The position numbers and the translations under genes are program-made. Shown here one piece after another: positions 416-23,419 of a stretch of DNA of 64,000 nucleotides; the stretch's first letter is position 1, and every line of letters begins with the position of its first letter. This stretch comes from an uncultured Clostridia bacterium (GTDB taxonomy: Bacteria > Bacillota > Clostridia > Peptostreptococcales > Anaerovoracaceae), in the NCBI GenBank assembly GCA_938009115.1, contig CALLHZ010000037.1:3230-67229 (forward strand), read 5' to 3'. The notes below the pieces were generated by a model. It was not told the DNA's origin. It saw only the letters and a list, made by a program, of their open reading frames with translations, and made no database searches.

Positions 416-2375
416 CAGGAGGAATCGGATCGGCCTGATGCTGGCGATCGTATTATTGGTCGCAGGGATTGCGCCGGTTGCAGCCTTTGGCGCGGACTCC
501 ATCAGCATCAGCCATACGGCAGGTTTTGACGCGGTGCAGGGCGACAGTCTGGTATTTATTACCGTGGACGCCACGGTGCTGTCCGGCACCGGCGACTACA
601 AACTGACGCTCACCGCGGGGGACAGCGATATCACGGTCACCTCGGGGGACAGCGGCGTGTTTGCCGGCGGCACGGACCAGTCGGCCACCTTTGCCGTGAA
701 GGTCGATAAAAAGGCTTCCGTGGGAGACCATACGCTGACCGTAAAAGTACTTGCATCTCCCGGTGGCGCACTCATCAATCAACGGGATATTACGCTGGAT
801 GTGGCGCGGAACCAGGATGGCTATTCCTCTCTGGGCGGCGCTGCTTTCGACGTGACCTATTCGGTTGCCGGCGGCAACACGATGGCAGCGGGCCAGACTC
901 AGACCCTTCGGCTTTCTTTGTTCAACCGGGGCAACACAGCCATTAAAAACGCCAGGATCAGCCTGACGCTGCCCGACGGCCTTTCCATCGCCAGCGGCGC
1001 CGCCACGATCAATGTGGGATATTTGTCCATCGGCAGCACGTACGTGGCGGAGTATCCCATCGCCGCGGACAGCGACCTGGAGAGCAAAAGCTATCCCGTG
1101 ACTGTGCAGATATCCGGCCTGAACACCTCCAACACCGAAATCAGCCTGGACGAGACCGTCTATGTGCCGGTGGTCGGCTCCGGCGGTTCGGGCGATCTGG
1201 ACCTGGAGATCACCGGCGTGCAGTCTCCGGAATCCGTGTCCGCCGGCAGCGACTTTTCGGTATCCTTCACCGTGACCAACAAGAGCGCTTATGACGCGGT
1301 CAATGTGAAGGCGGAGCTGAAGGTCCCCGAGGGCGTGATCAATAAAACCAAGAATGTGTTCCTGATTTCCAGACTGGCGCCGGGGGCCTCTCAAGTTTGC
1401 ACTGTCACCCTGAACGCGCGTCAGGGCGGCGAATATGCGCTGTTTGAGATTTCGGCGGGCAGCGCCGACGACACTCAGAAAGTATCCCAGTACGGCGGCA
1501 CCATGATCCAGGGCGGCGGAGGCGGAACAAACCCGCAGCTGATGGTCTCAGCCTACGGTTACGGCGGTCAGCCCGTCCGGGCCGGCGGTGAATTCAACCT
1601 GTCCCTGACTTTGAACAACACCAGCTCGGGCACGGCGCTGCAGAACATCAAAGTCACCGTTACCAGCGACGACAGCGCCTTCCTGCCCGTGGGCACCAGC
1701 AATGCTTTTTACGTGTCTTCGATCCCGGCCAGCAGCACCTTCACTCACCAGATGCGCCTGGCGGCCAAAAAAGATGCCGAGCAGCGCACCAGCACGGTAA
1801 CGGTCACCATGAGCTACGAAGACACCGCCGGCGGGACCTATACGGCCAGCGACATCATTTCCATCCCCGTGATCCAGGAAACAAGACTGGTGATCGACGA
1901 GATCCTGGATCCCGGCTATCTCACGGCGGACCAGATGGGTTACTTGAACGTGAACTATTATAATATGGGAAAAACCCAGCTCTCCAATCTTCGGGTGACG
2001 ACGGAAGGCGATTTTACAGTGGAAGGCTCCGCTACGATGTATGTGGGGAACATGGCCTCGGGCAAGAGCGATTATTACAGCGTCAACTTTTTCCCCAATG
2101 GCCCCGGTCCGCTGAACGGCAAAGTGACGTTTACGTTTGAGGATGCCGCAGGCGTGGAGCAGGTCATCGAGAAAACCTTTACTTTCCAGGTTGGCGAGGC
2201 CATGGTTTGGGAAGAAGATCCCAATATGCCCCAGCCGGAAATGCCTGCCGCCGGCATGAGCACATGGAAGGTGTTGGCCATCATGATCGCAGGCGCCGCC
2301 GCGGTCTTTGGCACCGTCAAATACAGGAAAAGAAAAAAGCTGATCAGGGACGAGGAGTTTGATCTGAATGAATAA
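396..2375 (+). CDS. membrane-anchored cell-surface protein with repeated Ig-like (CARDB/COG1361-type) domains
   Basis: RBS AGAAGGAG lies just upstream. Signal peptide RRNRIGLMLAIVLLVAGIAPVAAFGA. At least four beta-rich repeats share a core motif (LSLFNRGNTAIKN, FTVTNKSAYDAVN, LTLNNTSSGTALQN, VNYYNMGKTQLSN). C-terminal TM helix followed by KYRKRKK. Confidence 0.7.
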   Translation: MKQMSSSRRNRIGLMLAIVLLVAGIAPVAAFGADSISISHTAGFDAVQGDSLVFITVDATVLSGTGDYKLTLTAGDSDITVTSGDSGVFAGGTDQSATFAVKVDKKASVGDHTLTVKVLASPGGALINQRDITLDVARNQDGYSSLGGAAFDVTYSVAGGNTMAAGQTQTLRLSLFNRGNTAIKNARISLTLPDGLSIASGAATINVGYLSIGSTYVAEYPIAADSDLESKSYPVTVQISGLNTSNTEISLDETVYVPVVGSGGSGDLDLEITGVQSPESVSAGSDFSVSFTVTNKSAYDAVNVKAELKVPEGVINKTKNVFLISRLAPGASQVCTVTLNARQGGEYALFEISAGSADDTQKVSQYGGTMIQGGGGGTNPQLMVSAYGYGGQPVRAGGEFNLSLTLNNTSSGTALQNIKVTVTSDDSAFLPVGTSNAFYVSSIPASSTFTHQMRLAAKKDAEQRTSTVTVTMSYEDTAGGTYTASDIISIPVIQETRLVIDEILDPGYLTADQMGYLNVNYYNMGKTQLSNLRVTTEGDFTVEGSATMYVGNMASGKSDYYSVNFFPNGPGPLNGKVTFTFEDAAGVEQVIEKTFTFQVGEAMVWEEDPNMPQPEMPAAGMSTWKVLAIMIAGAAAVFGTVKYRKRKKLIRDEEFDLNE

Positions 2376-3687
2376 CAGGGACATCATCGAGCTGTGCGCA
2401 GGAAACCTTCTTCGCAGGAGGACCCGGACTATATTGGCCATCATCGGCGTGGTCGTGGGCACCTGTGCTATCGTTGTGATGCTCTCCATCGGGTTCGGCC
2501 TCAGCGCCAACTACCAGGAGCAGATCGAGTCCTACGGCAACCTTCATACGGTTCAGGTGTACAGCTACGGACGGGGCATGGATTCCTCGGGAAAAACCAC
2601 CGAACTGGACGATAAGACTATCGCTTCCATTGAGGCCATTCCCGGCGTCACATCGGTGACGCCGGTGATCGAGCAGTATCTGACTTTGGCGATCGGGCGC
2701 ATGGTCTGCAATACGTCGGTGTACGGGATCCGGCCGGAAACCATGGAGACCTTCGGTTTTGAGGTGGCCGAGGGGAGATTGCTGGAGGCTGGCGACAAGT
2801 ATGCCGTGGTATTCGGACGCAATGTGGCCAGCTGGTTCTATAATCCCCGGCAGCAGCAGGGCGCGGGCTGGGGCAGCGGCGAGCCTACAGTGGACGTGAT
2901 CACCACGGACCTGATCCTGACGGGTGACTGGAGCTATGGAACACCCCAGGAAGGAGAAGGCGAGATCCGTTATGAAACATACAAAGGGCAGGGAGTAGGC
3001 CTGCTGGCGGCGGAAAATGACGAGTCCTCCTACCGGGCCTATATGAGTTTGGATGCCCTGAAGGACATTCAGACAGAGATACGGAAGGCCAACGGCGAAG
3101 TGATCACCGGCGGAAAGATGACCTATCAGCAGGCGCTGGTGTATGTGGATGACATCAACGATGTGTCCGCTGTGTGTGACGTGATCCGGGATGAAATGGG
3201 GTTTGAAACTTACAGCCTCAACGACTGGCTGGAAAGCATGAAGGAAACGGCGGCCATGATCCAGGGAATCCTGGGAGGCATCGGCGCCATTTCTCTCCTG
3301 GTGGCAGCCCTGGGCATTGCCAATACCATGATCATGTCCATCTACGAGAGGACCCGGGAGATCGGTGTCATGAAGGTCATCGGCGCCAACCTGCGGGACA
3401 TTCGCAAGATGTTCCTGCTGGAAGCCGGCATGATCGGATTTTTAGGAGGCCTGGCCGGGCTGATCTTCAGCTATATCATTTCACTGATGCTCAACACCGT
3501 TCTGCTGCCCTTTATGCAGGGCTTCCTGGGATCCATGGGAAGCAGCGGATCTGTCGTGTCGGTGATCCCCTTTTGGGTGAGCGGCAGCGCGCTGTTGTTC
3601 GCCACCTTCATCGGCCTGGCTTCTGGGTACTATCCCGCCCAGCGGGCTATGAATCTGTCGGCGCTGGAAGGACTTAAAAATGAATAG
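2368..3687 (+). CDS. ABC transporter permease, FtsX/MacB family
   Basis: N-terminal TM helix, large extracytoplasmic domain and a C-terminal FtsX bundle (LLVAALGIANTMIMSIYERTREIGVMKVIGA). Start overlaps the upstream stop by 8 nt. Confidence 0.9.
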   Translation: MNNRDIIELCAGNLLRRRTRTILAIIGVVVGTCAIVVMLSIGFGLSANYQEQIESYGNLHTVQVYSYGRGMDSSGKTTELDDKTIASIEAIPGVTSVTPVIEQYLTLAIGRMVCNTSVYGIRPETMETFGFEVAEGRLLEAGDKYAVVFGRNVASWFYNPRQQQGAGWGSGEPTVDVITTDLILTGDWSYGTPQEGEGEIRYETYKGQGVGLLAAENDESSYRAYMSLDALKDIQTEIRKANGEVITGGKMTYQQALVYVDDINDVSAVCDVIRDEMGFETYSLNDWLESMKETAAMIQGILGGIGAISLLVAALGIANTMIMSIYERTREIGVMKVIGANLRDIRKMFLLEAGMIGFLGGLAGLIFSYIISLMLNTVLLPFMQGFLGSMGSSGSVVSVIPFWVSGSALLFATFIGLASGYYPAQRAMNLSALEGLKNE

Positions 3688-16302: not shown

Positions 16303-16337
16303 AAAAAAGGCTTTGGGTCGTGCCCAAAGCCTTTTTG
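16303..16337. terminator. bidirectional intrinsic terminator between convergent purL and the bactofilin gene
   Basis: aaaaaaggctttggg-tcgt-gcccaaagccttttt: a 9-10 bp GC-rich stem flanked by an A-run and a T-run. Confidence 0.7.
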
Positions 16338-16348
16338 CTTCGTAACGG

Positions 16349-16798
16349 TCAAGATTTCTTTGACTCTTTTTTCTCCGGAGCGTCGGCGCTTTCTCCGGCA
16401 GACTTCTGCCTGCCCTGTTTTTTGATCCGCAGACTGCCCTCGAATACGGAATCCTCGCTCATAATGAGTCTTGCGGCTTGAAGGACGCCCTCGACTTTGC
16501 CTTCTCCGGCGATCTCTACGGTGCGTTTGCACTGGATGTTGCCTTGGGCAACGCCTGCGACGACCAGGTTCTCCGAGGTGATATCTCCTGTATACTGCGC
16601 TTTTTCCGTGAAGGTGACATCGCTGGTGGATTTGATGTTTCCCTGTATGCTGCCGTGGACGAGCATGGGTTCATTCGACAGGAAATCGCCCTGAAACAAT
16701 ACGCCCTCTGCTAAAACGGTGTTGGCTTTGTCCGGTTCTTTTTCGGGTTCTGGCTGAGTGACCGGCTCCGCAGGCTCCGCTTTCTTTTTGAGTATCAT
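16349..16798 (-). CDS. bactofilin family protein
   Basis: Beta-helical repeat pattern VLFQGDFLSNEPMLVHGSIQGNIKSTSDVTFTEKAQYTGDITSENLVVAGVAQGNIQCKRTVEIAGEGKVEGVL, with a charged, low-complexity N-terminus and C-terminus. Confidence 0.8.
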   Translation of the reverse strand: MILKKKAEPAEPVTQPEPEKEPDKANTVLAEGVLFQGDFLSNEPMLVHGSIQGNIKSTSDVTFTEKAQYTGDITSENLVVAGVAQGNIQCKRTVEIAGEGKVEGVLQAARLIMSEDSVFEGSLRIKKQGRQKSAGESADAPEKKESKKS

Positions 16799-16828
16799 GT
16801 AGGTTGTTCCTTTCTGGTGAAATAACTT

Positions 16829-18337
16829 TTAGAGAGATAATTCCCCAAGCTTTTGCCCGATGCTGTCCTTGCGGTCTTCCAGAAGCAGGGCTTCACTGTA
16901 CTTATCATACAACAAACTGCCGAAATGTGAAATGAATTTTGCACTTTTGGGGTCAGCGGTCAGCTCTGTGACAGCCAGAAGCATCTCCCGGCCGGCCCCG
17001 AATACGGTTTCGATCGTTCCCAGGGCGGCCTCCAGTCCGGCGGAGGCATGCTGTCCCCGGGTCCAAAGGTCGTCGGACAAAGCATTGAATTCTCCCCGCA
17101 GGATCTCGAAGGTGCTCTTCTGTATATTGCTTTCTTCCAGGAGTACGCTTCTTTTTAATCGGGAAAGGACCCACTCTGCAGCTTTTGCCCGGTCTTTTTT
17201 CTCTTTAGATAAGCTGCGGGCCGAGGATGCCCGCTTCAGGGCCTCCTGCTGGTTCAGGATCTTTCTGTCCAGCGCGGAGGAAATATCAGAGCCGCTCTCG
17301 AATTCCTGGCGGACTTCTTTCAACATCGACAATACCAGGCCCAGCACTTCACGGTCATCGGTGATGCGCCGGATCTCTTCCAGGGCGGGATCCAGGAGCA
17401 TGTGGACCACAGCGATCCTCTCATCGAACCGGGCGTTTTTGAGCAGCCGGACCAGATCTTCGCTCAGAGCGCCTGCCGTCCGGTCCCGGGAGGCATACAG
17501 CCCCCGGTATTTACTGAACAGTTCATAATACAATGTAAAAGCTCGGGCAATGCCGCGGTTTCGGATATATTGGATCACAAGATTTTCGTCCACAGGCAGC
17601 TGCTCTTCTTCCATCAAGAACAGAACCTGAGAAAGATCTTCCCACCCTCTGGCCGTTACATAGGATTTTTCCCCGGCATCGATCTCCACGCTGTAGAAAT
17701 TATCACGATTTGCATCCAGGTAACCGGTTATGGCCCGATGAACACCCTGGGCCGAGGCGTATTGCCGCCAGGCGTCGTAGTCTGAATCTACTTCGATCAC
17801 TTTGAGCCGATCAAGAGTGACGATATCCAGGTTTCTGGCCGAGCGATTGTATTCAGGGGTGTTGCCGGCAGTAACGACGACCCAGCCCGGCGGCAGCTTG
17901 TGTTCACCGAAGCGCTTATATTGCAGAAATTGGAGCATGGAGGGCATCAACGTTTCTGAAATGCAGTTGATCTCGTCCAGAAACAAGATCCCTTCCCGTA
18001 TGCCGCTTTCTTCCATTGTCTGATGGATCGCGGCGATGATCTCGCTCATGGAATAGGTGCAAACTGTGTATTCCCGTCCGTCAAAAACCTTTTTTTCCAG
18101 GACAGGTAATCCCAGAGCGCTCTGGCGGGTGTGGTGCGTCATGGAATAGGAAACGATAGCGATGCCCAATTCCTGGGCGATCTGTTCCATGACAGCGCTT
18201 TTTCCGATTCCGGGAGGCCCGATCAGAAAGACTGGCCGCTGGCTTGCGGGCGGGATCCGGTATTCTCCGTAGGCGTCCTTTTTCAAATAGACTTGCACGG
18301 TGCGGCGGATCTGTTCTTTGACGTCGTTGATGAACAT
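16829..18337 (-). CDS. AAA+ ATPase (MoxR/AAA_5-like) with a roughly 220-aa helical C-terminal extension
   Basis: Walker A FLIGPPGIGKSAV, Walker B GILFLDEIN, sensor region VVVTAGNTPEYNRSARNLDIVTLDRL. Confidence 0.8.
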   Translation of the reverse strand: MFINDVKEQIRRTVQVYLKKDAYGEYRIPPASQRPVFLIGPPGIGKSAVMEQIAQELGIAIVSYSMTHHTRQSALGLPVLEKKVFDGREYTVCTYSMSEIIAAIHQTMEESGIREGILFLDEINCISETLMPSMLQFLQYKRFGEHKLPPGWVVVTAGNTPEYNRSARNLDIVTLDRLKVIEVDSDYDAWRQYASAQGVHRAITGYLDANRDNFYSVEIDAGEKSYVTARGWEDLSQVLFLMEEEQLPVDENLVIQYIRNRGIARAFTLYYELFSKYRGLYASRDRTAGALSEDLVRLLKNARFDERIAVVHMLLDPALEEIRRITDDREVLGLVLSMLKEVRQEFESGSDISSALDRKILNQQEALKRASSARSLSKEKKDRAKAAEWVLSRLKRSVLLEESNIQKSTFEILRGEFNALSDDLWTRGQHASAGLEAALGTIETVFGAGREMLLAVTELTADPKSAKFISHFGSLLYDKYSEALLLEDRKDSIGQKLGELSL

Positions 18338-18362
18338 AGCAATACTCCTGTGCTTCAGTTTG

Positions 18363-19673
18363 TTAGTCGAACTCCACCTTCGTCACCCAGGCCGGGGCTT
18401 CGGCAGCGTTGTTGTTCCCTTTGATGAAAGCGAAGACAGCTTCCCATGCCGGCGCCCAGTCCGGGTACGTGCCAAAGCCGTCGGTAAAGTATAGGAGGCC
18501 CCTGAGGTTTCCCAGCGTCCCCAGGCGGATCTGTTCGTCCACCCAGCGGAACACGGGCCGGAAATCCGTATCCCCGAAGCCCGACAGTTTTTCGTTCTTC
18601 AGATAATCGTCCATATCCTTGTCGCCGGACACAAGGCGGCAGGAGCGGATCCTGTCGTCGGCCTGAAGCACGTGGATCCGGGTCTTGCGGGAAAAACTCT
18701 CCGTGCTTTTAATTATATCATAGGTGCGCGTTAAAAATGCGCGGATCGGCTCGCCGCTGCAGGAACCCGAGGTGTCCAGTGCGATCACAAAGTCTCTGAC
18801 TTTTTCTGTTTCCTGATATTCCAGCGGCTCGACCAGAGGCATATTGCCGTATAGCGATAGCCCGTAACAATATAGTCCCGGTTCAAAGGCGTCGGGATCC
18901 TCCTGCAGTTCTTCTCCGGTCACGGCGAACCGCTTCAGAAATGCCTCATAGCGGTTTCTGCCGCGGGGAATATCCGCAGGTATTCGCCGGGTCAGGACTT
19001 CTGGGAGTTCCTTTCGGCGCGTTCTGGCACCTTCCTGCTCTTGTTTTCGGATCCTGCTCCATTCTCCCTCCAGGTCCGGAATTTCTCCGGTCCCGCCTAC
19101 GAGCCCTTCCGTGTTCTGCTCCCGCCCGGCAGGCCCGTCCCAAAGGCTGTGGTCGTCTGTATAGAACCAGGAAGCCGGTCCGGCAAGATCCGACGGGGAA
19201 ATGCCGTCGGCAAGGTATTTGGCATAGAGAAGCTCTGCTGTGAGCAGCGGCATTTCCTGCTCAAGCCCGGACAGCATGGAAGCCTTGCGGGCTGCCTCGG
19301 CGCCGGTCTCGCGGAAAACGGGCAGTTCTGAAAGAACACTTTCTGCTTCCAGGTCTGCGCAGAAGTTCCAAAGAGCACGGTTCCTTCCCCGGCCGCGAAA
19401 GGGATGCCCCAGAAAGCAGTGAAGCACCGTATGGAGATAAGCGTGGCAAAGGCCGGCGGGATCTTTTTTGTATGCTGCGATCACCCATTCCGAATCAAAA
19501 TAGAGGCGATCGCAATCCGTAGCAAGGGCTTTTAATCCTTGACGGCAGGCCGGCGCAAGACGGTGGAGGGCTGTCGCCAGATAATTCAGAGACACTACCA
19601 ATTCGTCCCGTGTCAGCCCCAGGATCTCCAGGGACAAGCTGCAGCGCATATCGTCGTTCGTTTCGGCGGACAT
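18363..19673 (-). CDS. vWA-like domain protein (DUF2201 type) with an N-terminal metallopeptidase-like domain
   Basis: MIDAS motif VIALDTSGSCSG in the C-terminal half. The N-terminal domain carries AYLHTVLHCFLGHPF, where this family normally has HExxH...H. Confidence 0.75.
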   Translation of the reverse strand: MSAETNDDMRCSLSLEILGLTRDELVVSLNYLATALHRLAPACRQGLKALATDCDRLYFDSEWVIAAYKKDPAGLCHAYLHTVLHCFLGHPFRGRGRNRALWNFCADLEAESVLSELPVFRETGAEAARKASMLSGLEQEMPLLTAELLYAKYLADGISPSDLAGPASWFYTDDHSLWDGPAGREQNTEGLVGGTGEIPDLEGEWSRIRKQEQEGARTRRKELPEVLTRRIPADIPRGRNRYEAFLKRFAVTGEELQEDPDAFEPGLYCYGLSLYGNMPLVEPLEYQETEKVRDFVIALDTSGSCSGEPIRAFLTRTYDIIKSTESFSRKTRIHVLQADDRIRSCRLVSGDKDMDDYLKNEKLSGFGDTDFRPVFRWVDEQIRLGTLGNLRGLLYFTDGFGTYPDWAPAWEAVFAFIKGNNNAAEAPAWVTKVEFD

Positions 19674-19687
19674 GGACTCTCCCTTCG

Positions 19688-20701
19688 TTACAGCCTGAGG
19701 TCGTCGCCGTTACCGGGCAATACAACCGTGCGGCGGCGGATAAGCCAGGCCAGGCAAGCGGTATCCTCCAGGCAGGTGACTGCGTCGAATACGGCCTCTT
19801 CCTGTTCCGGCGACAAAAGATCACGGTCTGCAAAAAACTTTAGCAGCATGGGGCGAAGGCCGGCCTCCACAGCTGCAATGCTTTCTGCCGCATGTCTTGC
19901 GATCCAGCTGCAATAGCGGTCTGCCGCATCCTCCGGCAATTCCCGGGGGTACAACAATCGATAGATGGCCGCTCTCGTTTTGTCTTCCTTTGAGACCATG
20001 GATGAAAACAATTTATCATAGACTGGAAAATCCATATTTCCAAGAGGCGCCCACAGGTCCGTCAAAGCGTTCAGGCAGCTGGGCTGCTCAGACCTGGAGA
20101 ACATCCAAATTTTATAAAGCGCCGCTCCGGCGCGATCCCGAACGGTCAGGACGTGGCCTTTAAAACGGATGCTCTCGGCCCAATGACCCGATTTTTTATC
20201 AGGGTCATACAACACACGACCCAGCATAGGATTTTTGAGCGACTCCGACACAGAGATGCCCTTGCATCCCCAAAAAGCTCCTTCTCCTAGGCTTGTCAAA
20301 CCATCGGGCATTACAGGGACACTGTCCCGCAGTGACGCGCCGCTGCCGCTCCCCAGACTCCAGGAAAAAGCATACGCGCCGATTTCCCGGAGAGAATCTG
20401 GGAAAGAAGGCATGCGCATCGCCGGGCAATCTGCAAAGGCAAAAGAGCCGATGGTCCTGAGCCTGTTGCCTGGCAGGATATCTCTCAAAGCTTCGCAGCC
20501 TTGAAATGCCTTTTCGCCGATTTCTTCCAGACTGTCGGGGAATACGACGGACCGGAGCGCCGGGTCGCGCAGAAAGGCCTCGCCTGCAATGCGCCGTACT
20601 CCGGCCGGAACCACAACATGCGTCCCGGCGCCGGTATATGCGACGAAGCAGTCCCCCTCGATCTGAAAGCCGCCGGCAGAAACGGTTCCTGTCATAAACA
20701 C
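19688..20701 (-). CDS. cytoplasmic BspA-type leucine-rich-repeat (LRR_5) protein with an uncharacterised C-terminal half
   Basis: Repeats of the form VPAGVRRIAGEAF / FPDSLEEIGEKAFQGC / LRTIGSFAFADC / FPDSLREIGAYAF / LTSLGEGAFWGC. No signal peptide. Confidence 0.7.
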   Translation of the reverse strand: MFMTGTVSAGGFQIEGDCFVAYTGAGTHVVVPAGVRRIAGEAFLRDPALRSVVFPDSLEEIGEKAFQGCEALRDILPGNRLRTIGSFAFADCPAMRMPSFPDSLREIGAYAFSWSLGSGSGASLRDSVPVMPDGLTSLGEGAFWGCKGISVSESLKNPMLGRVLYDPDKKSGHWAESIRFKGHVLTVRDRAGAALYKIWMFSRSEQPSCLNALTDLWAPLGNMDFPVYDKLFSSMVSKEDKTRAAIYRLLYPRELPEDAADRYCSWIARHAAESIAAVEAGLRPMLLKFFADRDLLSPEQEEAVFDAVTCLEDTACLAWLIRRRTVVLPGNGDDLRL

Positions 20702-20729
20702 CTCACTGAAAAACTGTCGTGATTGCAGA

Positions 20730-20759
20730 AACAGAGCACCCGAAGCCGGGTGCTCTGTT
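20730..20759 (-). terminator. perfect 12-bp hairpin between the upstream bactofilin gene and the LRR gene (weak terminator or processing site)
   Basis: aacagagcaccc-gaagcc-gggtgctctgtt. No adjacent U-tract on the minus-strand transcript. Confidence 0.35.
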
Positions 20760-20818
20760 GTTCGCAGGATTAGGAAAGGTTCAATAAAAGCTTTCGGGCG
20801 TCAGGCTGAGATGAGCCG

Positions 20819-21298
20819 TTACATGCCTTCGAATACGCTTTCGTCAATAGTCCTTTCCGATGTGCTCTGGATCTCACCGCGCACAGCAGCTCCGGTCTCC
20901 ATGCCAACGGTGAAAGAGCGGATGTTGCCGGCAACTAGGGATTCGCTGCGGAGCGTCACCACGTCTTCGATGATCAGATTGCCTTTGCATTTTCCGTTAA
21001 AGTCGATGTTCTGGCCGGACACGTCGCCGATGATCACCGATTCGGTGTTGGCTTTGATGTCGCCCTTAGCGAATATGTCTCCCTTGACTCTTCCGCCTGC
21101 CAGGACTATATCCTGTCCGGATACGTTGCCCACGACGATGCCGGTGATTCGAATATCGCTGTCAGAAGAAAGATTTCCGTTGATCCTGCCGTCCAGCACG
21201 ATATTGTTTTCCGCGCTGATCGAGCCGGTGATCTGCGTCGAGGGACTGATATAGGTTTCACTTTTCTGTGAAGCCGGGATGGATCTGTCGTCTTTCAC
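20819..21298 (-). CDS. bactofilin family protein
   Basis: ITGSISAENNIVLDGRINGNLSSDSDIRITGIVVGNVSGQDIVLAGGRVKGDIFAKGDIKANTESVIIGDVSGQNIDFNGKCKGNL, a beta-helix repeat pattern. Confidence 0.8.
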   Translation of the reverse strand: MKDDRSIPASQKSETYISPSTQITGSISAENNIVLDGRINGNLSSDSDIRITGIVVGNVSGQDIVLAGGRVKGDIFAKGDIKANTESVIIGDVSGQNIDFNGKCKGNLIIEDVVTLRSESLVAGNIRSFTVGMETGAAVRGEIQSTSERTIDESVFEGM

Positions 21299-21450
21299 TG
21301 GGGGAGTCCTCCTTCATTTGTTCAGCCTGAATGCGTGAAATGATTCAACACACAAATAATCTATCATTTCAAGGAATCCATTGCAAGTAGTTTACAATAA
21401 TTGCGCTGCTGCGGAGTAAAAACTTCGGTGAGGCGGCCTGAGATTTTTAG

Positions 21451-21479
21451 TTGTCATCTTTCATAATAAATGGGATAAT
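21451..21479 (+). promoter_or_regulatory. sigma-70-type promoter for the GGDEF/EAL gene
   Basis: TTGTCA (21451-21456), 17-nt spacer, GATAAT (21474-21479), in an AT-rich divergent intergenic region. Confidence 0.45.
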
Positions 21480-21511
21480 CAGATATATATCTGGAAGAAC
21501 AGGGGGGACTC

Positions 21512-23419
21512 ATGGAGTACGAGTATGGATATGCGATCTGTTCGCTGGTTTTCCTCATCGTCGTCGCGGTCCATTATTTTCAGAAGAAAAGCTACCCCAG
21601 CCTTCAGAATCGTATTTACAGCAAGGTGATGATCCTGGCGCTGGCGGATCTGGTTCTGGACATCACAGGCTCCTGGACCATCGTGCACGCCCAAAGCCTG
21701 CCGCCCTGGGTCAACCATGCCGTCAATACGCCTTTTTACATTATCCAAAACATACTGCCGGCCGCTCTGTGCCTCTATGTGATGGCCGTAGCCGAAGAGA
21801 TCCGCCCCCAACGCCGCCTGCTGATCGGCGCGGCGATGATCCCTGCGGCTGTCAGCTCCCTGGCTGTTCTCGTGAATCCGGTGACACGCTGGATTTTTTA
21901 TGCGGATCCGGGACAGCCCTATATCCGGGGTCCGTATTTTTATTCGATGTACGCCGGCACGGCCTTCTATCTGGCCCTCACACTGATGATACTTGTCTTC
22001 TACCGGAAGAAGTACCTGCGCGTCCAGTTCGTCACCATCCTGCTCTTTTTGGTGTTCATCTCTCTGGGTGTGTACATACAGTATCTTTTCCCGCAATATT
22101 TGCTCAGCAGCATGGTGATCGCTTTGGCCATCACGATGATGTTCTTCGCCATGCAGATCCCCGAGGATATGCTGGACGCAGTGACCGGCGCTTTCAATCA
22201 TGCTGCCCTGATGCGCTACATCGACAGCGGCGCCCGGCACCGCCGGAAAATGCTTGGGATCGCCGTGAGCATCGAAGGATTGCTCAATCACAGTCAGCAC
22301 CTTACGCTGAACGCCATGAACGAAGCGGTGAAGCAAATGGCGGATTATCTGGAGCGCCTCTGTCCAAAAGGCTGGGTCTTTCGCATGAGCACTTCGGTTT
22401 ATGTCGTTCTGACGGAAGACAGGGAGTGCTACGAAAAGGCCGCGGCGGAAATGAAGGAGCTGGACGGATTTTACTTTGAAGCCGCCGGAACAACGCTGAA
22501 GCTGCCCCTTGCGGTCTGCGTATTTCCCCAGGGAGAGCTGGTCACTTCTTCCACCAACTTTACGCGGCTGGTGGAAACAGCCTTCCAGGAGGCCAAAGCC
22601 CGTGGCCAAAGAGGCTTGATCCGGATCGATCCGGAGATCATCGCTGACCTGAACCGGTACGCCGCTGTGGAATCAGCCATGGCAAGGGCTCTGCGGGGAG
22701 ACGGTTTTGATCTCCATTTCCAGCCGATCTATTCGTTGAACAAGGAACGTTTTGTTTCCGCGGAAGCTTTGATACGCCTCAGCGATCCGGTCCTGGGCGA
22801 TATCCCTGCCCAGGAAATCGTATCCATCGCCGAGGCCAACGGCACCATCGTATCCATCGATCGGTACGTCCTGCGGAGCGCCTGCCGGTTTATCCGCGCC
22901 AACGGCCCCATCGGCCGGTACGGGCTGGACATGATCACCGTGAACGTCTCCACAGTGGATCTTCTTCAGGAGGATCTGTACGAGAGCATCATCAGCGTCA
23001 TCCTTGATGAGGGAATTCCCTTTGATGCTGTCGGACTTGAAATCACCGAATCCGCTTCGGCAGCCTTCAGCGACGAGTTGATCGGGCGGCTTCAATCCTT
23101 TGCGCAAAAGGGCATACGGCTTCTCCTGGACGATTTTGGAGCCGGCTACTCCAATCTGTATCGGATTGCGAATCTTCCGCTGTATGCGGTCAAAATGGAT
23201 CACAGCATGTTTTCCACCTATGAGTCCGGCACTCAAAGCGCAGTCCTTTTTGAGGAAATGATCCATATGTGCAAAAAGCTTGGATTCCTGGTGATCGTCG
23301 AAGGGATCCACGAGCCTCGGCAGATCGAGGAACTCCGCCGTCTGGGGGTGGACAGGATACAGGGCTTTCATTACTCCAGGCCCCTTCCATCCGATGAATT
23401 TCTGAAACTGTTTCAATAG
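21512..23419 (+). CDS. integral-membrane sensor with a degenerate GGDEF domain and an EAL domain (likely c-di-GMP phosphodiesterase)
   Basis: The N-terminal ~200 aa contain multiple TM helices. GGDEF-fold start DAVTGAFNHAALM, but FRMSTSVYVVL sits where RxGGDEF is expected. EAL motifs are intact: SAEALIRL, GLEITES, LLDDFGAGYSNL, AVKMD, VIVEGIHE, IQGFHYSRP. Confidence 0.85.
   Translation: MEYEYGYAICSLVFLIVVAVHYFQKKSYPSLQNRIYSKVMILALADLVLDITGSWTIVHAQSLPPWVNHAVNTPFYIIQNILPAALCLYVMAVAEEIRPQRRLLIGAAMIPAAVSSLAVLVNPVTRWIFYADPGQPYIRGPYFYSMYAGTAFYLALTLMILVFYRKKYLRVQFVTILLFLVFISLGVYIQYLFPQYLLSSMVIALAITMMFFAMQIPEDMLDAVTGAFNHAALMRYIDSGARHRRKMLGIAVSIEGLLNHSQHLTLNAMNEAVKQMADYLERLCPKGWVFRMSTSVYVVLTEDRECYEKAAAEMKELDGFYFEAAGTTLKLPLAVCVFPQGELVTSSTNFTRLVETAFQEAKARGQRGLIRIDPEIIADLNRYAAVESAMARALRGDGFDLHFQPIYSLNKERFVSAEALIRLSDPVLGDIPAQEIVSIAEANGTIVSIDRYVLRSACRFIRANGPIGRYGLDMITVNVSTVDLLQEDLYESIISVILDEGIPFDAVGLEITESASAAFSDELIGRLQSFAQKGIRLLLDDFGAGYSNLYRIANLPLYAVKMDHSMFSTYESGTQSAVLFEEMIHMCKKLGFLVIVEGIHEPRQIEELRRLGVDRIQGFHYSRPLPSDEFLKLFQ

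Follow-up and report, generated by a model that had tools for sequence, protein, structure and literature searches.

What does a clostridial cell do with a compact gene block in which an AAA+ ATPase, a von Willebrand factor A (vWA) protein and a leucine-rich repeat (LRR) protein are flanked by two bactofilins? We met this arrangement in a 64-kb stretch of DNA from an uncultured Clostridia bacterium (contig CALLHZ010000037.1; this whole stretch is hereafter called the window), where, in transcription order, the bactofilin gene bac1, the LRR gene, the vWA gene, the ATPase gene and the second bactofilin gene bac2 follow one another on the minus strand. An original prediction, made from the letters alone, had taken the five genes for one unit and proposed that it either remodels a bactofilin scaffold or serves as a conflict system. 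Comparison with relatives leads to a different answer: the conserved unit is not the set of five genes but a trio, made up of the MoxR-type ATPase, the vWA protein and the LRR protein, the last of which is predicted to be cytoplasmic. With moderate confidence, we read this trio as a ternary MoxR–vWA machine in which the LRR protein is the substrate receptor or the client, and to which the bactofilins are lineage-specific accessories at most.

Which of the five genes belong together? An alignment of 23 diverse vWA homologues was used to scan one genome per species across bacteria and archaea, returning at least 584 stretches with a vWA relative, of which the best 80 loci (L001–L080) were kept. 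These come from Lachnospiraceae, Oscillospiraceae, Ruminococcus, Peptococcaceae, Anaerovoracaceae, Alkalibacter, Solobacterium and other Bacillota. Searching them with the window's proteins (phmmer) recovered the vWA protein in 80/80 loci, the AAA+ ATPase in ~71 and the LRR protein in ~70. The vWA gene adjoins the ATPase gene nearly everywhere (~71 of the 80 loci; the gap in the window is 25 nt), and an LRR_5 neighbour in ~70 loci, in several gene orders, bears out the earlier proposal that the LRR gene is tied to the AAA+/vWA pair. When the 1013 called genes of the loci were clustered all-against-all, vWA genes were found in 72 loci, ATPase genes in 71 and LRR genes in 68 (97 genes), while the next commonest family reached 14 loci at most. 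The lesser recurring families (MatE, UDP-glucose pyrophosphorylase, epimerase, ABC transporters, two-component systems, deacetylase and QueH) are local housekeeping synteny.

Within the trio, gene order is fluid. Writing V for vWA, A for ATPase and L for LRR, we counted V-A-L in 43 loci, L-V-A and V-L-A in 8 each, L-V-A-L in 2 and A-L-V in a single locus, with one to five LRR copies per locus. Core genes are tightly spaced (median 9 nt) and overlap one another at 59 of 151 junctions. The trio is also encoded at two loci outside the 80 (L086 and L087). That its linkage persists through repeated rearrangement across families is strong evidence of joint function. Beside the trio of L074 lies a second, distant vWA/AAA pair (428–2969, minus strand), consisting of an ATPase open reading frame (ORF) of ~380 aa that lacks the helical tail described below and a vWA ORF of ~470 aa; it may be what the DUF2201 system looks like in a simple version with two genes.

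The bactofilins behave differently. Both are bona fide family members by Pfam (Bactofilin, PF04519: 76.6 bits for bac1 and 78.3 bits for bac2, cut-off 27.9), and a hidden Markov model (HMM) built from eight bactofilin sequences of the window's clade finds no others in the 64 kb. Applied at E ≤ 10 to all ORFs of at least 50 aa in the 80 loci, the same model detected a bactofilin neighbour in one, L001, the closest relative, whose contig ends at the LRR gene so that the flank there is not visible; the other 79 had none. Exact-protein look-ups of nearer relatives added L081, L082 and L085 (vWA identity 84, 64 and 44%), which have all five genes between the same flanks as in the window, purL on one side and an EAL-domain gene followed by the Mrp antiporter operon on the other. 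In L083 and L084 (vWA identity 45%) the order LRR-vWA-AAA-bac2 occupies the same place, without bac1 and the EAL gene. Wherever flanks are visible, then, the loci with a bactofilin are syntenic with the window from purL to Mrp, at vWA identities of at least 43%. Bactofilin linkage is limited to the window's own Oscillospiraceae sublineage, and since this is a single syntenic sublineage, common descent can explain it. The five-gene unit of the original prediction thus shrinks to its three central genes.

The two bactofilins also differ from each other. At L081, L082 and L085, bac1 is 99, 92 and 83% identical to its counterpart in the window, compared with 94, 85 and 69% for PurL, 91, 77 and 58% for the AAA+ ATPase and 79, 56 and 37% for the LRR protein (the vWA values are those given above). 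Its ratio of nonsynonymous to synonymous substitution rates (dN/dS) is 0.014, and its dS of 0.19 lies well under the 0.43–0.69 of neighbouring genes, a pattern suggestive of very high expression, strong constraint on codon use or a recent exchange. A terminator-like hairpin, with a 13-bp GC-rich stem followed by TTTCT, separates bac1 from the LRR gene. The 117-nt gap folds at -39.5 kcal/mol (z = -3.99; 0/200 shuffles were as stable), and the stem is kept in L081 and L082, in the latter with a compensatory C-G to T-A change. A simple terminator scan missed this hairpin, whose T-tract is short. Its probable effect is to terminate or attenuate transcription of bac1, so that bac1 looks separately terminated, perhaps with leaky read-through; on this point the claim that all five genes form one operon does not hold up. 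In the 14- to 30-nt gaps between the LRR, vWA, ATPase and bac2 genes, a hairpin was looked for and none was seen. Given that bac2, which starts 30 nt after the ATPase gene, has its own Shine-Dalgarno sequence (AGGAA) and no hairpin ahead of it, co-transcription with the trio is likely. Its gene is present in L001 and L081–L085, and lies 26–37 nt 3′ of the ATPase gene in every clade member examined.

At the protein level, bac2 begins MILKKK (MMLKKK or MISKKK in orthologues), which we likened by eye to MFSKKKK, the published global consensus for bactofilin membrane targeting (PMC12448750). The start of bac1, VKDDRS, is devoid of such a motif, and the protein carries a 55-residue N-terminal extension. 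Set beside canonical bactofilins such as BacA of Caulobacter crescentus, both proteins have full bactofilin domains; by eye, bac2 comes close to the consensus at its N-terminus; bac1 departs from it through the missing targeting motif and the extension. We take it that bac1 is probably a highly expressed, separately terminated, lineage-specific neighbour, and bac2, which resembles a canonical membrane-binding bactofilin, would be at most a local accessory, for example a membrane anchor or a lineage-specific client.

What kind of proteins make up the trio? Every Pfam domain assigned to the five proteins in the original prediction scored above its gathering cut-off. For the ATPase these are AAA_5 (37.7 bits, cut-off 22) and AAA (37 bits); bpMoxR (PF20030) is passed as well (31.3 bits, cut-off 27), ranking below AAA_5 and AAA over the same stretch. 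Residues ~1–290 constitute the AAA+ module and residues ~291–502 a helical tail that ends in GELSL-COOH. Walker A (GPPGIGKS; G40, P42, G43, G45, K46), Walker B (D121-E122) and the sensor and arginine residues N159, R177 and R230 show no variation among 27 homologues, and full-length identity to distant family members is 47–50%. In an AlphaFold2 model (predicted local distance difference test, pLDDT, 71), long helices extend over residues 304–501 beyond the AAA+ module, and a β-hairpin at 82–91, modelled at pLDDT <50, follows the highly conserved YSMTHHTRQSALGLP; the MoxR class is defined by an insertion into helix 2 of its AAA+ core (PMC7159879). Foldseek searches with this model returned generic AAA+ proteins (dynein, Vps4, p97 and NorQ, 9qh8_F) at low TM-scores and nothing matching the helical tail, and a sequence search of the PDB gave no informative relative. 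Among 1.84 billion representative proteins, a search with the tail alone found 397 matches, all of them C-terminal in proteins of ~500 aa or in fragments, and hence no other architecture makes use of this tail. It changes faster than the core (dN/dS 0.14 vs 0.054). The extra ~220-aa tail that had been singled out as a peculiarity of this locus thus exists (at ~210 aa), but is a family-wide trait.

The vWA protein combines an N-terminal zincin-like DUF2201_N domain (PF13203/PF09967 pair; 38.8 bits, cut-off 23.2), a variable linker and a C-terminal DUF2201 vWA domain (43.3 bits, cut-off 26.4). Its metal ion-dependent adhesion site (MIDAS) is complete (D300-T-S302-G-S304, T369 and D398), with D300, S302, S304, T369 and D398 invariant in 23 homologues. 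Equally invariant in this set are H81, H85, H90, D107 and E111 of the zincin-like domain. The residue after H81, however, is Ser, Met, Thr, Val, Leu or Ala and never Glu (23/23 sequences), so none has an HExxH motif. Lacking the catalytic Glu, the domain is very probably not a peptidase, and it may instead have kept a metal site or a peptide-binding groove. A PDB search with the vWA profile found no solved relative by sequence. Many of the vWA proteins end in LVLxxDEI.

The third protein is a composite of an LRR_5 solenoid (residues ~6–150 in the model, with the LRR_5 domain at ~16–150; Pfam LRR_5, 65.4 bits, cut-off 27.7), a small β subdomain and a helical module (~206–330), and it ends in DDLRL-COOH. 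Its AlphaFold2 model (pLDDT 81; predicted template modelling score 0.76) has eight helices over residues 207–327. Foldseek matched the LRR half to BspA-type LRRs, the best being TpLRR of Treponema pallidum (6mlx, E = 6e-9) and the next ones ‘cell surface’ LRR proteins of gut bacteria; for the helical half, the TPR/PPR-like matches were insignificant. Starting from residues 206–337, jackhmmer converged on 94 proteins in 69/80 loci, always LRR neighbours. A Pfam scan of 55 copies assigned them to no consistent family (weak Ank_2 in 4/55), and we conclude that the LRR proteins share a predicted helical module of ~110–130 aa that is undescribed. In 62 proteins it forms the C-terminal part, and in the other 32 it is internal and the LRR comes after it. 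Across loci the LRR proteins range from 270 to ~1800 aa, and the 1039-aa LRR protein of L086, too, carries at least part of the module.

Are these proteins exported, as one would expect of BspA-like proteins? A hydrophobic 19-mer (hydropathy >1.6) occurs in 5/103 LRR/module proteins, compared with 27% of neighbouring genes, and by the same crude test the window's LRR protein peaks at a 19-residue Kyte–Doolittle hydropathy of 1.39 (residue 303), in keeping with the earlier statement that it lacks a signal peptide. Unlike typical BspA-like proteins, the LRR/module proteins are thus predicted to be cytoplasmic. The LRR protein is moreover the fastest-changing member of the trio (dN/dS 0.19; identities as above). 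In some Oscillospiraceae and Ruminococcus, tandem LRR paralogues of 430–680 aa place the module ahead of the LRR, a second architecture, and in L004, L010, L011, L068 and L076 four or five such paralogues stand between the vWA and ATPase genes. The vWA neighbour in L070 (2487–7925) is an 1812-aa protein with LRR_5 repeats and a DUF4132 domain (E = 2e-25). We considered DUF4132 as the identity of the common module and discarded it, as the L070 protein shares only the module's last ~35 residues, which form its C-terminal end.

LRR proteins and ATPases have a further trait in common. A hydrophobic-x-hydrophobic-COOH ending is found in 38/62 LRR proteins with a C-terminal module (61%) and in 34/63 ATPases (54%), compared with 69/728 other genes of the same loci (9.5%). 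Typical LRR endings are DFFAGLEL, EFDFSL and RFVL, and a typical ATPase ending is EIEKLDL; most are of the form LxL, and acidic residues or FF often stand before it. Where the module is internal, the LRR proteins end in Y-K/R-E-x. Tail types seem to co-vary within subclades, an ATPase ending in SALSSML occurring with an LRR protein ending in RKRFVL. In NorQ/NorD, the C-terminus of NorD is reported to dock on NorQ (PMC13036017), which sets a precedent for tails as docking elements. Here, the surface that receives the tail may be the dead zincin groove or the MIDAS site, both of which are candidates.

How, then, might the three proteins work together? By analogy with NorQ/NorD, CbbQ/CbbO and RavA/ViaA we infer a physical complex, its docking elements and its direction of action. 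The ATPase would form a hexameric ring, and the vWA protein would bridge from this ring to the target via its MIDAS site. The LRR protein would be a dedicated third subunit, whose helical module and hydrophobic tail would dock on the vWA/ATPase core and whose fast-changing, copy-number-variable LRR surface would pick the protein that is to undergo remodelling. Another option is that the client is the LRR protein itself. ATP hydrolysis would then alter the conformation or the assembly state of the bound partner. Between the two roles, the distribution of constraint favours that of a substrate receptor: what is conserved is the module and the tail, and what varies, in sequence, length and number of copies, is the LRR part.

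Several observations weigh against reading the trio as such a ternary machine. Eleven loci have no LRR gene by HMM. Five of these end at a contig edge, in L055 BLAST clustering did find the LRR gene, and in L036 it lies 5 kb away; yet the complete loci L002, L016, L034 and L040 hold a vWA-AAA pair with no recognisable LRR neighbour, and the third subunit is therefore either not strictly obligate or encoded elsewhere. In none of the neighbourhoods of the surveyed loci could a client protein be identified. The enrichment of the hydrophobic C-terminal ending, large as it is (Fisher p = 1e-20 for LRR proteins and 2e-16 for ATPases), was calculated with the kinship of the sequences ignored. Finally, loci as distant as L085 (44% vWA identity) still have the five-gene set, both bactofilins included, and within the window's lineage a functional tie to bactofilin is conceivable.

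A bolder version of the ternary-machine reading, which we advance tentatively and hold to be somewhat unlikely, is that the trio defines a Clostridia-specific class of receptor-guided AAA+ remodellers, in which interchangeable cytoplasmic LRR receptors dock via the helical module and the LxL-type tail. The tail may be bound in the dead zincin groove or at the MIDAS site, and the receptors would deliver specific cellular or invader proteins for ATP-driven disassembly. If true, the trio would correspond, in bacteria, to segregases guided by adaptors or to the LRR-based sensors of innate immunity.

Could the trio instead belong to the cell's armoury? As a conflict or defence system, it would sense an invader protein through the variable LRR, and the MoxR/vWA pair would transduce or execute the response, for instance by dismantling a phage assembly or by activating an unlinked effector. 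It is the pace at which the LRR protein changes (37% identity where PurL keeps 69%; dN/dS 0.19 vs 0.076), together with its spread in size and its up to five tandem paralogues, that keeps this reading alive. Moreover, MoxR–vWA ternary systems have been proposed as conflict systems, among them a β-propeller type that is likewise effector-less (PMC7159879), the ATPase lies above the bpMoxR cut-off, and homologues of the core pair occur in many phages (phrog_1297 and phrog_1314). The surroundings tell another story. PADLOC-DB v2 returned P-loop-level matches only for the ATPase (mad8, 6.6e-6; IetA, 1.3e-5), none at E ≤ 0.01 for vWA, LRR and bac1, and a borderline DrmD match for bac2 (E 0.01), and NCBIfam assigned the five proteins to no specific family. 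The neighbours are housekeeping genes (MatE, UDP-glucose pyrophosphorylase, epimerase, ABC transporters, two-component systems, purL, Mrp), with no defence or mobile genes among the neighbour families scanned with Pfam, and the locus stays syntenic across the clade down to 44% vWA identity. There is no nuclease, protease, TIR or pore-type effector, and the zincin-like domain is without its catalytic Glu. Pairwise dN/dS is <0.3 in every gene and sub-region, and we detect no gene-wide positive selection. The one full-length ‘phage’ match that was examined is a scaffold with bacterial housekeeping genes, and no plasmid match is full-length. With no positive support from context for the conflict system that had been put forward initially, we regard it as unlikely.

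The phage and plasmid records themselves deserve a word. Profile phrog_1297 matches ATPase residues 32–274 only (E = 6e-41), phrog_1314 matches the vWA domain (E = 3.7e-22), and several hundred phage records match the ATPase core at <30% identity. The ‘HNH endonuclease’ label of phrog_1314 does not fit a vWA domain and is probably a mis-annotation. Carriage of the system by phages was considered and rejected, for the full-length matches are ‘UNVERIFIED’ virome scaffolds and the one examined is bacterial: MT835935.1 (L087, H1), a human faecal virome record filed under ‘UNVERIFIED: Bacteriophage sp.’, encodes the trio in the order LRR-vWA-AAA together with an ABC exporter, a radical SAM protein, a NUDIX protein, an M18 aminopeptidase, DegV and a Mur ligase, and by its gene content resembles a piece of a bacterial chromosome more than a phage. 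In related MT83xxxx records, too, the match to the ATPase is full-length. Plasmid carriage was likewise set aside, as only distant core-domain matches were obtained, none covering >56% of the ATPase.

A third possibility is that of a maturation chaperone, in which the LRR/helical protein is the client and is folded, oligomerised or metal-loaded by the MoxR/vWA pair in the way NorQ/NorD acts. The LRR gene is the sole conserved neighbour of the pair, and the zincin-like domain, having kept three His, an Asp and a Glu, may still bind metal. To our knowledge, LRR_5 and helical repeats have no cofactor to be inserted. In addition, up to five divergent paralogues and proteins of 1000–1800 aa fit interchangeable receptors better than a single enzyme-like client, and the conserved part of the protein is the helical module, not the LRR. 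Characterised MoxR/vWA pairs usually have the gene of their client as a neighbour (PMC13036017, PMC9976466), which speaks for a client role of the LRR protein; all told, we nevertheless consider maturation of this kind improbable.

The remaining proposal, that the ATPase/vWA pair and the LRR scaffold assemble, disassemble or position the flanking bactofilins, is very improbable, for although both bactofilins flank the trio in four loci including the window, bac2 follows the ATPase gene closely, with its own ribosome-binding site and no terminator ahead, and an external remodeller is conceivable for proteins that polymerise without nucleotides (PMC12448750), 79 of the 80 loci have no bactofilin neighbour, common descent can account for the rest with visible flanks, no further bactofilin is encoded in the window, literature searches turned up no link of bactofilin with MoxR, bac1 changes ~10x more slowly than the trio, which is not suggestive of co-evolution, and the restriction to one sublineage, the bac1-less L083 and L084 and the hairpin after bac1 together leave this idea weak as a general function.

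The layout of the locus itself largely agrees with the initial description (Table 1). The six-frame ORF list contains the five consecutive minus-strand ORFs at the coordinates and with the spacing first described (gaps of 117, 14, 25 and 30 nt in transcription order), and a greedy gene call over the whole window returns them as its sole multi-gene minus-strand block. Relative to the closest relative, the five genes have dN/dS values of 0.014–0.19 (LRR, vWA, AAA+ and PurL all <0.2), which is purifying selection and marks all five as functional genes. The bidirectional terminator announced for one end was recovered between the convergent purL and bac2. For the LRR gene, the start is most likely the ATG at 20695 rather than the GTG at 20701, because the identical database protein P0241 starts there and homologues begin MTG or MKG; the gap that follows bac1, correctly said to contain a hairpin, thereby becomes 123 nt, and the hairpin itself turns out to be terminator-like. 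At the other end, the divergent region had been described as an AT-rich promoter region. The 21–22 kb segment is among the lowest-GC parts of the window (0.513), and on the minus strand of the intergenic region no sigma-70-like promoter exceeded the scan threshold: the candidate TTGCAA-17-TAGATT (~21356–21384) falls below it, and the scan reported plus-strand sites only (21451–21479 and 21438–21467). The same region contains the ribosome-binding site of bac1 (AGGAGG, 8 nt ahead of the GTG start). That of the vWA gene is AGGGAG, 6 nt upstream. A promoter-like site also occurs within the 3′ end of the ATPase gene (16904–16931); we did not retain it as an internal bac2 promoter, its conservation being inseparable from that of the YDKY coding sequence.

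Table 1. Features of the locus, with positions counted along the window
Feature	Position	Strand	Details
EAL membrane-protein gene	21512–23419	+	divergent from bac1
Intergenic region between bac1 and the EAL-domain gene	21299–21511		divergent
bac1	20819–21298	-	159 aa, GTG start
Stem-loop in the bac1/LRR gap, terminator-like	20728–20760 (stem ~20730–20759)	-	ACAGAGCACCCGG/CUUC/..., then UUUCU
LRR gene	ORF 19688–20701; probable gene 19688–20695	-	ORF 337 aa; probable gene 335 aa
C-terminal tail codons, LRR gene	19688–19705	-	
vWA gene	18363–19673	-	436 aa
AAA+ ATPase gene	16829–18337	-	502 aa
C-terminal tail codons, ATPase gene	16829–16846	-	
bac2	16349–16798	-	149 aa
Intrinsic terminator, bidirectional	16304–16336		14-bp stem, 6 GC pairs, A and T runs flanking

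The EAL gene is not the only neighbour with a domain of cyclic di-GMP metabolism, and the contexts are unrelated. In L012 (6416–7954), L016 (5991–7895), L034 (4580–6493) and L071 (5567–7897), the gene immediately preceding the vWA gene, and oriented like it, is a GGDEF gene; the GGDEF proteins of L016, L034 and L071 also have a periplasmic-binding-protein domain, and the GGDEF gene of L034 overlaps with its stop the start of the vWA gene. A link of the module to cyclic di-GMP was considered on these grounds and not adopted, the EAL and GGDEF neighbours being too few cases to call.

Why does this matter? The trio is common and conserved in Lachnospiraceae and Oscillospiraceae, dominant families of the gut. 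Protein searches point to at least thousands of 90%-identity clusters, with single variants on up to 171 contigs, and the databases name these proteins ‘AAA family ATPase’, ‘VWA-like domain-containing protein’ and ‘leucine-rich repeat protein’ only. Defining the trio unites three large, so far hypothetical protein families in one context, suggests a cytoplasmic role for BspA-type LRRs that are normally taken as surface adhesins, and adds a Firmicute branch to the MoxR–vWA ternary systems. The bactofilins should stay outside the definition of the system. Among cultured organisms, Alkalibaculum bacchi, Alkalibacter mobilis and Dysosmobacter sp. are candidate carriers of the trio. For experimental work, the MIDAS residues, a Walker B trap, the helical module and the C-terminal tails offer themselves as handles.

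How does the trio relate to known systems? The original prediction knew of no described function for the combination, and full-text literature searches for DUF2201/COG3864/PF13203, for bactofilin with MoxR and for LRR_5 with AAA_5 likewise gave nothing relevant. Its LRR proteins share their fold with BspA/TpLRR-type proteins, which are surface-exposed or secreted; they differ from these by having neither signal peptide nor membrane segment, and by their conserved helical module and C-terminal tail. The phage pair phrog_1297/phrog_1314 is homologous in ATPase core and vWA domain, but the phrog_1297 profile, at 356 positions, leaves the helical tail uncovered, and we know of no LRR partner for this pair.

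RavA/ViaA of Escherichia coli offers a closer parallel for the ATPase: RavA is reported to be a ~500-aa MoxR ATPase with a C-terminal extension for partner binding and to have a vWA partner (PMC6987120, PMC3893208). The trio shares this general plan, yet Pfam detects no RavA-specific domain in it, its tail is an all-helical bundle in the model, and its vWA protein is of the DUF2201 family. With NorQ/NorD and CbbQ/CbbO it shares the tight coupling of an AAA_5/MoxR ATPase gene to the gene of a MIDAS-bearing vWA protein; Foldseek retrieved NorQ with the ATPase model, and partner C-terminal elements serve as docking sites in NorQD (PMC13036017). It departs from these pairs in a vWA protein that carries a DUF2201_N zincin-like domain without catalytic Glu, in the ~210-aa tail of the ATPase and in a third gene that encodes an LRR/helical protein and not an enzyme client, with no metalloenzyme nearby.

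The nearest kin are the MoxR–vWA ternary systems defined by Kaur, Burroughs, Iyer and Aravind in 2020 (PMC7159879), which comprise VMAP, iSTAND, FtsH and β-propeller types. There, effector domains are fused to the vWA protein alongside the VMAP, iSTAND, FtsH or propeller components, and the systems come mainly from Actinobacteria, Cyanobacteria, Planctomycetes, Bacteroidetes and Proteobacteria. Like them, the trio joins a MoxR ATPase, which here passes the bpMoxR cut-off, and a vWA protein to a variable repeat-scaffold third protein, and like the β-propeller type it has no conventional effector. Unlike them, it resides in Clostridia, its pseudo-zincin vWA protein has neither effector nor propeller, and its third protein pairs LRR_5 with a helical module. 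By Pfam, LRR_5 is the sole domain of the third protein, and the vWA protein has none besides DUF2201_N and DUF2201, with no VMAP, STAND, FtsH or propeller domain in either, and the 2020 survey mentions LRR once and does not describe the architecture of the trio (PMC7159879). Together, this places the trio within a known kind of MoxR-type AAA+/vWA system, in which three elements set it apart from NorQ/NorD, CbbQ/CbbO and RavA/ViaA: the pseudo-zincin of its vWA protein, the helical tail of its ATPase and an LRR protein as third component.

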